Notes: generated from the letters alone by a model not told the origin. DNA of 64,000 bases from Vezdaea acicularis (GCA_026025075.1 JAPEUI010000093.1:1-64000); one strand, 5' to 3'; counted from the first letter of the stretch, positions 7,436 through 13,821 are shown. Numbers and translations: made by a program.

Positions 7436-10400
7436 ATGAGCTTCGGCTATAGTCTTAGCGATTTTGCTCTTACCGCAAAGCTTGCGCGCGCCACCTGGAA
7501 GCAGTTTGAAGATGCGCCGGGCCAGTATAAGGCAATTCGTACGGAGTGAGTGCCCACCCTTAGATCCATTGCCTAGTGCATGAGCTCACCGAAGGTAGAG
7601 TCGCCAACCTCAATCTTGTCCTTGACGATGTTGTCCAGTGTAGGTCCGAACTCCAAGTTAGCGAGGAACAAAAAGAGAAGCTAGACGCACTAGTCGAGGG
7701 ATGCAAAGATGTGCTTGCAGAGCTAAGGGCGAAGCTTAAGAAAAGTGAATGTCTAGATGACACCAGTCAAAGCTTGAAAACCAAGTCTCGAAAAGCGTGG
7801 AGCAGGTTAAGATGGGACCAGACTGAGATTCAAGGGCTTCGAGATAGAATTGTTTCAAATGCAACTCTTCTTGATAGTTTCAGTTCTAGCCTTGTGATTA
7901 GTGGTATAGATCGCCGTCTTGAGGGGATAGAACAAAATCAAATTAGCCAAGAACACAAAAATATTGCCAGATGGTTATCTTCTCTCGAGCCCTTTGCTAC
8001 ACAAGAGGACGTCTTTTGTAGGTGGCAAGAGGGGACTGGTCAATGGCTGCTTGATTCGCCAGAGTTCAAGGGCTGGCTGTGCGGAGAGCGTAAAACTTTA
8101 TGGTGTCATGGGCGCCGTGAGTATCAGAGATATCCTTTGGCTACATCAAACGTACAGCTAATCACCCAACAGCGGGAGCTGGAAAGACCGTAATTGCGTA
8201 AGTTATTGTCCGTAACCTAGAGCTATTGAATGACTTGAATACCTTAGATCCGTTGTCATCGACCATGTTCAAAGGGCTTTCAAGGATGACAATGCTGTAA
8301 TCCTTTGGATCTACTGCAACTATAAACAGAAGTCCGAGCAAACGATCACAAACCTACTCGGTAGCTTGCTCAAGCAAGTTGTTTTGCAGCGCCCCAACAT
8401 CTCGGATCATGTCAGAGGTCTTCATGATAAACACTCGAAGCTCAATACTCGGCCCGCACCCGAAGAGATCGTCCAAGTACTCGGAGCTGAGCTTGCTTGC
8501 TATTCACAAACTTTTATCGTGGTGGATGCTTTGGACGAATGCTCTGAGGAGTCGAAGACGAGGTCGAATCTACTTGGGAATCTTCGCTCATTATCTGGCA
8601 ATGTTAGCCTCTTGGTCACGTCTCGCAATTTACCTACAAGCGAGACTGAATGCGACTTTGATAGGAAAAATAGGGTTGAGATACGCGCGAGCGATGAGGA
8701 TGTGCGTTGTTATGTCGAGGCTCGGATATCTAGTGAGCCTCGTCTCCTTAGGCATGTGAAGGTAGAACCTACATTGCGGAATCTTATTACAGAGACTATA
8801 GTGAACAATGTTGAGGGAATGTACGAAACTCTCCGCAAATCCCTTATACTTCATGTCTGACCATTACTAAAAAAAAGGTTTTTACTTGCTCAACTTCACA
8901 TGGACTCGCTGGAGACAAAGACCAAGCGAAAAGCAATTCATGATGGTCTCAGACACCTCCCTAAAAGTATAGATGATACCTATGACGAAGCAATGGCGAG
9001 GATTGATCAACAGAACGAAGACTTAGAAGATCTTGCTAATAATGTTCTCTTATGGATATCTTGCGCCCGCAGACCCTTGTCGCTCATGGAGCTACAGCAT
9101 GCGCTTGCCGTCGAGGAGGGACAAACCTCTATTGACTCTGGCGATCTTGATGATGAGGAGACGTTAATTTCTGTATGTGTTGGATTAGTCGTGCTCGATG
9201 AAATCAGCAACACGGTCCGTCTAGTCCGTGAGTAACAACTTTTTTTTCAAACATCAGTAAATTAGGAATCCTAGAATGATATAGGCGAAATTTCTAGCGG
9301 AGTCTTGTAACACTAGCCCTTCAAAGAACAAGTCGCCAAAGCACGGGTCATGCGTACATATCGGTCTCAAGGTCTGACTCAATGATATCACGATGACACC
9401 TTGGAATGCTAGTCTCTACTTCACAGAGTTGTACAGTCTCATGCCCTAGGGGTTTCCTTGACCAGATATTAAGCGATTAACAATTCTATACGTACTGTCT
9501 CTTGTGGTGTTGATTTTCATTGCCCTTGTCGGCACAATAGTCTATACTAAAGATCTCCTGAGTCGCTTACCGTCATGATAGATTACACTACGCAAGACTA
9601 TTTCGAGCGTATCCGCCCCCAGCGCTTCTCAAACTATCAATCTAGGATCGCAACGACTTGTCTCACCTATCTCTTATTCGATGTCTTCGCTGGAGGTCCT
9701 TGTTTATCCAATGACGCGGTTGATGCAAGACTGAATGAGAATGCTCTGTTCGGTTACGCCTCTCAAAACTGGGGACATCACGTTAAGGCGGACACAAAGC
9801 GATCTGTCAAGGCCCTTATTACGGAATTTCTTAAGGATGAAGTTAAGGTTCAAAGCTCTGTTGAAGTGCTTTTCTGGAACGCAAGCTCCGGAAAGGATGA
9901 TCGCATAGGGTGGAACGTAAGATACGCAGACAGCTTACACCTCGCGGTGTTTTTCTCCCTAGAAGACACAACAGTATGGCTCATAGGGGAAGGAGTTGAG
10001 CTCAACCCCAGAGATAGTGAAGGTAGGACCCCACTATCGTGGGGAGTCTTGAAAGCCGATCAGGCATTAGTAGGACTCTTAGTTACAAAAGGTGCAGAGC
10101 TGGAGTCTAAGGACAATCATGGTCGGACGCCGCTGTCTCTGGCAGCGTCGTTTGGAGAAGTGGAAATGGTACGACTGCTGCTGGAGAAAGGCGCCGAGCT
10201 GGAATCTAAAGACACTGGTGGCCTGACGGCGCTATCTTGGGCGGCGAGAAAAGGGAAAGAAGCAGTAGTACGACTGCTACTAGAGAATGGCGCCGAGCTG
10301 GAATCTAGAGGTAATTTTGGCCAGACGCCGCTGTCTCAGGCAGCGTGGATTGGGGAAGAGGCAGTGGCACAACTGCTGCTAGAGAAAGGTGCAGAGCTGG

Positions 10401-11566
10401 AATCTAGAGATGGCTATGGCCAGATGCCGCTATCTCAAGCAGCAATGTCTGGAGAAGAGGCAATGGTACGACTATTGCTAAAGAAAGGCGCGGAGCTGGA
10501 ATCTAAAGATGGTCTTGGCTTGACGGCGCTGTCATGGGCGGCGAAAAAGGGGCAAGAGGCTGTAGTACGACTGCTGCTAGAGAAAGGCGCAGAGCTCGAA
10601 TCTCAAGATGAGCGTGGCCAAACGGCACTATCTTGGGCGGCCGAAATGGGGCGAGGGGCTGTGGTACGACTGCTGCTAGAGAAAGGCGCGGAACTGGATT
10701 CTAAAGATGGTCATGGCCAGACGCCGCTGTCTTCGGCGGCCGAAAACGGGCAAGAGGCTGTGGTACGACTGCTGCTAGAGAAAGGCGCAGAGCTGGAATC
10801 TAAAGATGGTTGTGGCCAGACGCCGCTGTCATGGGCGGCGATGTCTGGGGAAGAGGTTGTGGTACGACTGCTGCTAGAGAAAGGCGCAGAGCTGGAATCC
10901 AAAGATGGTTATGGCCAGACGCCGCTGTCATGGGCGGTGATATCTGGGAAAGAGGCTGTGGTACGACTGCTGCTAGAGAAAGGCGCGGAGCTGGAATCTA
11001 AAGATGGTTCTGGCCAGACGCCGCTGTTAGGGGCGGCGATGTTTGGGAAAGAGGCTGTGGTACGACTGCTGCTAGAGAAAGGCGCGAAGCTGGAATCTAA
11101 AGATGGTTATGGCCAGACGCCGCTGTCATGGGCGGCGATGTCTGGTGAAGAGGCTGTGGTACGACTGCTGCTAGAGAAAGGCGCGAAGCTGGAATCTAAA
11201 GATGATTCTGGCCGGACGCCGCTGTCACATGCGGCCGAAAAGGGGCGAGAGGCTGTGGTACGACTGCTGCTAGAGAAAGGCGCAGAGCTGGAATCTAAAG
11301 ATGATTCTGGCCGGACGCCGCTGTCACATGCGGCCGAAAAGGGGCGAGAGGCTGTGGTACGACTGCTGCTAGAGAAAGGCGCAGAGCTGGAATCTAAAGA
11401 CACTAGTGGCCTGACGGCACTGTCTTGGGCAGGAAGGAAAGGGCAAGAAGCAGTAGTACGACTGCTGCTGGAAAGAGGAGCTGTCACAAGTTCTGGAGGT
11501 AGTAATGGCATAAAGCCTTCGACCTTTGCGGCAGAAGGGGGCACGAGACCACCGCATGGATCTTGA
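7436..11566 (+). CDS. Fungal NLR (STAND) protein: HeLo-like/SesA-type N-terminal helical domain + NACHT NTPase + winged helix + ~16 ankyrin repeats
   Basis: ATG 7436 MSFGYSLSDFALTAKLA; introns ~7546-7598, 8118-8171, 8198-8247, 8821-8877, 9228-9581; splicing rebuilds Walker A LWCHGRPGAGKT, Walker B FIVVDALDEC, GMFLLAQLHMDSL, RPLSLMELQHALA and VRLVHYTTQDYF; C-terminal 33-aa ANK repeats. Confidence 0.93.
10085..11480 (+). repeat. 99-bp tandem array encoding ~14 near-identical ankyrin repeats
   Basis: Recurring unit GTGGTACGACTGCTGCTAGAGAAAGGCGC.GAGCTGGAATCTAAAGAT with 99-nt period; two near-terminal units (about 11190-11400) are essentially identical. Confidence 0.95.
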
Positions 11567-12621: not shown

Positions 12622-13821
12622 TCATGGATACCTCTGCGCCGTGTTCGCCGCATCATAATACTGGCGAGTCCGCTCGTCCCAGACCCAAGTAGGATCTGAC
12701 CTTGCCCTTGATAACATCTCAACGGGTCGGCCGTATTGATCGGTTTCAGTATTGTATGTCCTCGGTGTGGCGTCTCGTTCGCCCGTCGGATAACCGGGCC
12801 CTGTTCCTGAGGTAGCGTATGCAGGATATCGCTGTGCTACATCTCGTGCTGGATAAGAAGGATAGCCACCACGTGAGTCAGGTGTGGGTGTGGCATCCGC
12901 TCGTCCAGCTGGATCGGTTGGGCTCTGGGCATAGGCAGCTTGGCCACGTGGTTCACGATATGGGTCGCCTGACTGTGCGCCATAAGGAGCTTGTCTATAC
13001 GAAGACTCGGTATTGTAAGAGACCGGATCTCTATATCCTGACGACTCCGTGTAAGGGCGTCCGTAGGGATCAACAGAATAACCTCCGTATTCGGAGGCCC
13101 TCCGAGTGAGATCTTGTCTGCCCCGCCCAGAGGCGGATGAAAGTGTGGTACCTCCGCCATCTCTCCCAATACCCTCTCCATATGCTGGCATGGCTGGTGG
13201 GACAGCTGCTGAGGGGGTTCCCCAAACGTCCCTCGATCCGCGCCCTAGCCTCGCTGGCGACAAGACAATATCACCGCTCGCCAGAATAGAAGCAAGAGAG
13301 GTGCCAGCGCCATCTCTTCCACCGCCTCGCCGCTCCTGGGTAGTCTCACGGTCGACAATGCCACCATCGCGCAACACGTCCTCAGTAGTCTTCACTGCTT
13401 GTGAACTTTGCAACAGAACTTCCTTGACGAGAATGGCTTGTGAAGTATAGAGAGTACTTCTGACCCATTCTGCGCGTTGCTTGGCATCGACGAGACGTGA
13501 ATCCGACTCTCCCCCTTGGCCACGGTCAGTTTATATTTGAGAGAATTAGGCACTAAGGAAATGCTGGCAACCCGAGATGACCTTACCACGCGATCTTGCA
13601 GCCCTTGGATCATCTCTGGAGCGTCGATCCTCCCGCTCGGCGAGCCGCTTCTCACGCTCGAGCTCGTCTCTTTGCTCTTCCAGCTTCCTTTTCAAAGCTT
13701 CATGAGCGCGACGGTCGTGAGAGTCACGGAATTCTTCCCATGAATTCACTGCATCGATGCAGTCTTCAATGATTTTGACAATGGCACCGATCGCCGTGGC
13801 GACGCCTAGGAGCCAAGACAT
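12622..13821 (-). CDS. Hypothetical protein with HeLo/HET-S-like N-terminal amphipathic helix, coiled-coil segment and Tyr/Gly/Pro/Arg-rich disordered tail
   Basis: ATG 13821 MSWLLGVATAIGAIVKIIEDCIDAVNSWEEF; intron 13515-13586 (GTAAGG...CTGAC...AAG) joins in frame through GGESDSRLVDAKQRAEWVRSTLYTSQAILVKEVLL to ORF 12622-13413. Gene model well supported; the HeLo assignment is inference. Confidence 0.75.

Follow-up and report, generated by a model that had tools for sequence, protein, structure and literature searches.

A self-contained NLR and a strain-conserved orphan protein with a weakly HeLo-like first helix, arranged tail-to-tail in Vezdaea acicularis

Does a NOD-like receptor (NLR) gene of the fungus Vezdaea acicularis form a two-gene immune module with the gene that faces it tail-to-tail? 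Both genes lie in a window of 64,000 nucleotides (GCA_026025075.1, JAPEUI010000093.1:1-64000), one contig of an 18.9-Mb fungal assembly; the genus is listed as lichenised or alga-associated. The original prediction paired a complete HeLo-like-NACHT-ankyrin (ANK) NLR with a stand-alone HeLo-like protein carrying a prion-like tail. We find that the NLR is an ordinary self-contained, all-in-one receptor of the HeLo-like-NACHT-ANK type, that its neighbour is a real orphan conserved between strains, and that the first helix of this orphan is HeLo-like, weakly yet beyond chance. The reading we favour, with a probability of about 0.58, is that these are two independent genes, neighbours by chance, and that the orphan is most likely a membrane-docked, disordered, condensate-forming scaffold.

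Both genes are real (Table 1). The NLR had been called complete, and it is: it has an open frame of 1,186 residues, NACHT matches, 15 repeats and an N-terminus recognized at E 7e-12. The convergent two-exon gene, which encodes 375 residues, is likewise present about 1 kb away (gap of 1,055 bp) and begins as quoted. The public gene model P0002 is equal in length to our NLR splice, has a 100% identical exon 2 and is given as the same protein, and the orphan splice is identical to public model P0005, both public models being predictions too. A near-identical copy of the orphan lies on another contig and, aside from its called start, has four amino-acid differences. Intron 5 of the NLR gene (9228-9581) is 354 bases long, against 50-57 in the other four, and holds no long frame; one moss-metagenome run has a joint across 9392-9515.

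In the NLR, the P-loop (8110-8189, split by an intron) and Walker B (8516-8542) are both intact, and the 13 inner ankyrin repeats have a mean pairwise identity of 73%, the array appearing in the DNA as a 99-bp tandem repeat with 84% matches. The N-terminus lies under every Pfam cut-off (SesA gives 15.5 bits where 26.3 are needed, E=0.02) and was therefore scored against a HeLo-like profile of our own, built from 14 N-termini (12 from this genome, two from public matches) with the NLR itself left out; residues 11-128 match this profile with 31.9 bits (E 7e-12). AlphaFold, run without an alignment, places helices at residues 7-24, 31-54, 59-96 and 101-134, at a mean predicted local distance difference test score (pLDDT) of 50, and this model aligns with generic four-helix bundles along some 130 residues (best Z 15.1, root-mean-square deviation 2.7, 134 residues aligned). 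With this four-helix model and the 31.9-bit match, the earlier statement that the NLR retains its own helical effector domain holds.

All-in-one NLRs are a class already described in PMC12881547 and PMC5485727. Members with a PF17111 or SesA (PF17107) N-terminus share with this NLR the domain order, the four-helix N-terminus, the intact P-loop and Walker B, highly identical repeats and raised strain divergence (compare PMC13449251); its N-terminus below the Pfam cut-offs and its unusually polar first helix set it apart from typical members. The architecture is observed, and the mechanism can be drawn from the family: a ligand would bind the variable ankyrin array, the NACHT module would then exchange nucleotide and oligomerise, and the HeLo-like four-helix domain would itself act at the membrane. 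With such a domain of its own, the NLR would need no executioner.

What, then, is the orphan? Its residues 3-32 resemble the first helix of HeLo domains above chance and in register (G6, C21, I22, A24). In a first scan of 958 Met-started stretches against the three HeLos of this genome, the orphan helix scored 30.3 and the runner-up among non-HeLos 14.0. With a set of 15 HeLos, 12 from metagenomes and three from this genome (18 loci, 17 extracted, five dropped as duplicates or for intron-broken starts), it scored 23.0, compared with 32-76 for the true HeLos, each left out in turn; a strict null that preserves the pattern of hydrophobic, small and polar residues gave p=0.007. C21 alone contributes 8.5 of the 23 points. 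These and the other p-values for the likeness are optimistic, because the test was anchored on a feature that had already been noticed.

The 19-residue core of the helix has three charges, versus 0-1 in all 15 HeLos, and its hydrophobic moment is 0.41, versus 0.07-0.28. The orphan carries D23, as does one true HeLo of this genome. HET-S expels residues 1-34, the segment to which the orphan helix corresponds, to reach the membrane, and PMC3531502 reports that the HET-s allele caused no liposome leakage unless D23A and P33H were introduced. The pattern originally quoted as that of membrane-inserting HET-S carries D23 and has to be corrected, since this residue belongs to the HET-s allele (PDB 2wvn vs 2wvo). 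D23, the three core charges and the higher hydrophobic moment suit a helix lying on the membrane surface better than one spanning the membrane, although plant resistosome pores are lined by acidic amphipathic helices.

A folded HeLo domain beyond this helix is unlikely. The whole orphan protein matches none of PF14479, PF17111 and PF17107, nor do residues 1-56 or 1-32 match Pfam HeLo; as a positive control, residues 1-56 of all three true HeLos from this genome reach 47-60 bits against the latter. Our own HeLo and HeLo-like profiles give the orphan 2.0 and 4.5 bits, respectively, and since the second of these gives even true HeLos no more than 4.2 bits, the orphan could conceivably belong to a third remote family. 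The profile-profile comparison (hhalign) returned a probability of 1.5% over 29 columns. The conserved E..RL..W block is not found in the orphan (-2.5 versus 45-72 in true HeLos; p=0.20), 120 of 958 background stretches scoring as well. One 48-residue window of the orphan is 8% hydrophobic and 67% charged, whereas all 30 HeLo and HeLo-like domains are 21% or more hydrophobic and no more than 46% charged, and residues 31-78 are 65% charged; such a charged, hydrophobic-poor composition argues against a bundle core.

The same single-sequence AlphaFold method that gives four helices for the NLR domain gives a two-helix hairpin for the orphan, with helices at residues 2-70 and 81-117 plus a short one at 122-128, and a block pLDDT of 65-87 across residues 1-110. 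The best structural matches are generic coiled-coil hairpins. HET-S, MLKL and RPW8 are not among the fold matches listed for this model, which is uninformative because they are not listed for the NLR N-terminal model either. The check that had been proposed for the orphan N-terminus, by profiles and structure prediction, yielded no HeLo match and a predicted hairpin, and of the description as a HeLo-like protein only the likeness of the first helix survives. A duplication of the NLR N-terminus was also considered as the origin of the orphan and rejected: the two show no significant alignment, the global score against the HeLo-like profile is at chance (p=0.35), and the introns are placed differently.

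The description of the tail as prion-like was not borne out. A Q/N-rich prion-like domain has high Q/N, low charge and low Pro; judged by composition alone, with no dedicated predictor, residues 131-375 are unlike such a domain, with 5% Q+N, 10% Pro and 24% charged residues, and no more than six Q/N in any 80 residues. The tail contains 21 Tyr, 29 Arg, 32 Gly and 24 Pro and no Lys, and shows weak internal repeats (six repeated 4-mers versus 1.5 expected, p=0.0065). A Tyr/Arg-rich composition is like that of condensate-forming regions and unlike that of Q/N prion domains or amyloid signalling motifs. The NLR and the orphan had been said to share no amyloid motif, and we agree: they have a single 4-mer in common, which lies inside an ANK repeat, the best BLASTP E-value between them is 0.14, and of seven amyloid-motif patterns (one of them from PMC9815663) six are absent from both proteins and the seventh, a loose one, occurs a single time, in the tail. 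Repeated D-x-x-G/R motifs at residues 227, 262, 279 and 337 are a loose echo of the NLR ankyrin hairpin and of the plant dehydrin Y-segment, for which BLASTP support is nil at the E-value just given.

Searches for relatives of the orphan came back essentially blank. A complete HMMER search with the whole protein, covering 1.84 billion representatives, recovered its own cluster only. In word-indexed searches, one of 6,997 candidates matched exon 2, a near-identical copy, and none of 400 matched exon 1; Atlas look-ups gave three viral hypothetical proteins under 0.9 for exon 1 and nothing usable for exon 2. None of 137 pattern matches in metagenome contigs and none of nine in viral contigs were confirmed, the genome itself returned only the orphan, and the sequences of the PDB gave one chance match (E=0.74). 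Pfam shows no SNARE or other family match for the protein; the exon-1 product has a weak ARGLU match that is below the cut-off (E=0.001). The orphan therefore has no detectable family, and remote kin may still exist. The motif D-x-Y-G-R-P recalls the plant dehydrin Y-segment; a dehydrin/LEA identity, suggested by two such motifs in the orphan, was dropped for want of a family match.

We also compared the locus between strains, using four moss-metagenome runs from one study whose contigs cover the region (30 records listed of 157); no RNA data set was listed for it. The listed pieces overlap between runs and hence are not independent, and as the runs were found through words common to this stretch, some near-identical part is favoured. 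Across the NLR, the pieces differ from the window at 203 of 3,148 letters (about 6.5%), five pieces by 5-10% and one at the 3' end by 0.4%. The upstream membrane-protein gene differs at 141 of 2,043 letters (6-10%) and TFIIA at 34 of 1,621 (1.7-3.0%). Exon 2 of the orphan (window 12620-13575) differs at only 22 of 2,464 letters (0.9%; 0.6-1.2%), free of gaps, and of all parts listed across 12.5 kb it varies least, below TFIIA, though the sequence it encodes is mostly disordered. This unusual conservation, despite disorder and the lack of a family, means that the orphan probably has a function. In two runs a contig break lies at 12620, beside the orphan stop codon. Two joints within the NLR omit 1,089 and 396 bases; both lengths are whole multiples of the 99-base unit and may reflect variation in repeat copy number; misplacement in the array may also account for them.

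This pattern is consistent with a diversifying NLR, like those in PMC13449251, beside a conserved gene that is off the divergent haplotype; balanced footprints may span only a few hundred bases, according to PMC11138114. A divergent NLR with a conserved orphan speaks against an allele-matched guardee such as Bcvic2, and may still be compatible with a conserved, shared executioner. The predicted membrane-protein gene at 5672-6603 lies 832 bases from the start of the NLR in head-to-head orientation and has similarly raised divergence, and on both counts it is a stronger candidate than the orphan for a partner that co-evolves with the NLR.

The genome has at least about 36 NACHT or NB-ARC loci. 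Near 34 of the 35 other NLR-type loci (562 kb, with shorter stretches at contig ends), none of 6,887 Met starts reaches the score of the orphan helix, and the five HeLo matches of the genome are all on contigs that have no NACHT or NB-ARC match. These matches (L049-L053) are on C90, C2, C265, C129 and C101, and L049 and L050 are HeLo genes with further C-terminal regions. Two NLR loci on different contigs, L004 (C291:58022-58258) and L005 (C106:2999-3235), have near-identical N-terminal domains, as from recent duplication or two haplotypes in the assembly. L044 (C81:13153-13401) is a gene that shares the MSF-type HeLo-like start of the NLR (pairwise E=5e-5) and whose contig has no NACHT match; it is a candidate stand-alone HeLo-like protein.

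How should the adjacency be read? In the NWD2/HET-S, HELLP/PNT1 and sesA/sesB pairs, an NLR gene likewise adjoins a gene with a HET-S-like start helix, and adjacency and the first-helix match are what favours a canonical pair of the NWD2/HET-S type here, with the orphan as a HeLo executioner switched on through amyloid templating. This is largely refuted, and we hold it to be very improbable: unlike those pairs, the neighbour has no detected HeLo/HELL core, no amyloid-type composition or motif and no amyloid motif in common with the NLR. In amyloid-coupled pairs, as PMC5485727 describes them, the NLR has only a short amyloid motif instead of an effector domain, whereas this NLR retains a 135-residue helical domain from Met1; HET-S/STAND pairs are divergent or tandem (PMC3321046), whereas these genes are convergent. 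Compared with the HET-S/HET-s HeLo domain (PF14479), the orphan is in register with the membrane segment and shares G6, C21 and D23 with HET-s, and it differs in the core charges, the missing E..RL..W block, the highly charged stretch at the core position and the predicted hairpin. The idea of a two-gene immune module is weakened because there is no HeLo core or amyloid motif, the NLR is self-sufficient, the genes are convergent, they do not diversify jointly and the arrangement does not recur at 34 of the 35 other NLR-type loci; its anatomy and the first-helix likeness stand, and nothing positive supports it beyond that helix and the adjacency. The literature covered, which left most subscription papers outside the search, yielded no truncated, stand-alone or decoy HeLo protein at a fungal NLR.

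HeLo ancestry of the orphan is possible, if doubtful, when the rivals are taken together. It could be a degenerate HeLo derivative acting alone, with the first helix retained, the bundle core lost, a tail gained and the adjacency historical or accidental, which we regard as unlikely. The in-register match of residues 3-32 under the strict null speaks for it, as does global alignment to the HeLo profile, in which the orphan stands above every non-HeLo: only three of 493 sequences, each a true HeLo, outscore it (p=0.001), and its score is in line with that of HeLo-like domains compared across families. Colinear traces appear in this alignment at K46-R51 and near W95, and a block of 22 columns surrounding the conserved HeLo Trp fits best in the W95 register (p=0.03-0.05, eight of 493 background sequences as high). 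However, with residues 1-32 held fixed, the remaining alignment has p=0.03-0.23 in four settings and requires about 50 domain residues to be deleted before W95, two other sizes of the Trp block give p=0.13-0.50, and much of the helix score comes from C21. More doubtful still, the orphan might be a HeLo-derived, helix-only partner of the NLR, in which the bundle caging a HET-S-type segment has been shed and the helix sits on a coiled-coil hairpin. It would join the helical N-termini of the NLR upon activation, as an amplifier or as a non-leaky, dominant-negative brake, with helix exchange and condensation of the Tyr/Arg tail replacing amyloid templating and the first helix of the NLR being too polar. 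The likeness covers exactly the segment that HET-S expels (PMC3531502). Across 822 kb no other helix of this sort turned up, yet this one is 1 kb away from an NLR, whose own first helix has little hydrophobicity, and the strong conservation of the orphan fits a shared executioner. There is a plant precedent in an RPW8/HELL-type protein acting on an NLR (10.1101/682807): Arabidopsis RPP7 with RPW8/HR4 embodies the same concept, in which a separate helical membrane protein that bears a repetitive tail acts on an NLR with its own N-terminal domain, although HR4 is an allele-specific MLKL/HELL homologue and the orphan is likened to it in concept alone. Such a partnership is opposed by the lack of recurrence near 34 other NLR-type loci, by the lack of a homologue to reveal linkage, by the convergent orientation and by the extra charges, which argue against membrane spanning; as a genome has about 36 NLR-type loci with some 70 neighbours, and the reader was primed by the NLR, the odds of such a neighbour arising by chance are not remote.

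It is quite improbable that the orphan is a guardee, an ordinary coiled-coil protein watched by the ankyrin NLR, as BCVIC2 or SEC-9 would be. Bcvic1 (NACHT-ANK, as here) and Bcvic2 (SNARE) adjoin in Botrytis (10.1101/2022.04.03.486892), PLP-1/SEC-9 likewise sets an NLR beside a helical, coiled-coil-type protein, and a membrane helix and a coiled coil are predicted for the orphan. However, the orphan lacks a SNARE domain or other family match, and such partners are highly polymorphic according to the same source, whereas the orphan is conserved between strains. A role as decoy or modulator may also be considered.

In the reading we favour, of two independent genes, the HeLo-like first helix of the orphan would be a case of convergent amphipathic patterning. 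This helix would rest on the membrane surface, residues 33-128 would oligomerise as a coiled coil or helical hairpin, and the Tyr/Arg-rich tail, together with the aromatic motif at its end, could make multivalent contacts, like the disordered septal-pore proteins of Pezizomycotina. Similar to the SPA/SPP proteins of that group, the orphan is lineage-restricted, largely disordered, Arg-rich and Lys-poor, while its tail is Gly-rich and without His, the likeness being one of composition. Several observations weigh against this reading. The global alignment score of the orphan, its level and the colinear traces have been given above. In a scan of 821,811 genomic bases with 10,033 Met starts, no other non-HeLo scored as high as the orphan helix, which adjoins an NLR gene; three true HeLos alone ranked above it, and HeLo-like NLR starts reached at most 19.3. 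The scan is blind to genes with early introns and recovered three of four HeLo genes within the stretches covered. The first helix of the NLR (7436-7545) is polar, with a best 19-residue hydropathy of 0.49 compared with 1.70-2.12 in 15 HeLos, and carries four charges. Both structure models were built without an alignment. Finally, a scaffold role may apply, and it is read from composition only: septal-pore proteins are biased toward Arg and His and poor in Lys and Gly (PMC10023807), and the tail fits two of these four biases, Arg and the avoidance of Lys, and not the His bias or the avoidance of Gly.

If the two genes are independent, the locus matters little, being one more polymorphic all-in-one NLR beside an orphan, and the HET-S membrane segment has a measurable, unexplained echo in the first helix of that orphan. 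If the helix does work with the NLR, a fungal NLR would be coupled to a separate membrane-active partner by means other than amyloid, and the case would serve to test if a HeLo first helix can act without its bundle; a helix-only partner would add a third fungal NLR wiring to all-in-one receptors and amyloid-coupled pairs.

Table 1. Features of the NLR-orphan locus, in window coordinates.
Feature	Position	Strand	Basis
NLR gene, 1,186 residues, six exons	7436..11566	+	splice gives one open frame
NLR exons	7436-7545, 7599-8116, 8173-8197, 8248-8820, 8878-9227, 9582-11566	+	
HeLo-like (PF17111/SesA-type) four-helix N-terminal domain, residues 1-135	7436..7893	+	own profile, model
NACHT module with winged helix	8032..9604	+	NPHP3_N E=1e-39, NACHT E=7e-6, GPIID_WHD E=4e-9
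15 ankyrin repeats of 33 residues each	10028..11512	+	domain matches and tandem array
Spacer between the two stop codons, single-copy, 1,055 bp	11567..12621	.	
Orphan gene, 375 residues, two exons	12622..13821	-	GT..AG intron with CTGAC branch site
Orphan exon 1; intron (72 bases); exon 2	13821-13587; 13586-13515; 13514-12622	-	
Orphan residues 1-32, amphipathic helix that aligns in register with the N-terminal membrane segment of HeLo/HET-S	13726..13821	-	scores
Orphan residues 33-78, Arg/Glu/Asp mixed-charge helix	13588..13725	-	composition
Orphan residues 79-130, second long amphipathic helix, spanning the intron; return arm of predicted hairpin	13360..13587	-	model
Orphan residues 131-375, disordered tail	12625..13359	-	pLDDT below 50 and composition
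Orphan residues 353-367, aromatic motif like an OCRE-type hairpin	12649..12693	-	OCRE match of the last 25 residues, 15 bits, E=0.026, cut-off 24.7: hint only
Predicted single-pass membrane protein (Cys-rich ectodomain, Ser/Thr stalk), encoded head-to-head with the NLR	5672..6603	-	open reading frames

For the membrane-protein gene, Pfam gives no family above the cut-off, and a probable intron at 6302-6223 was chosen from six candidate splices. An Rfam scan of the window returned no match. In window positions 1-5200, where Rfam is also blank and four long open reading frames were tested without a Pfam match, the contig start is single-copy and GC-rich (56-67%), and is possibly a long regulatory region.

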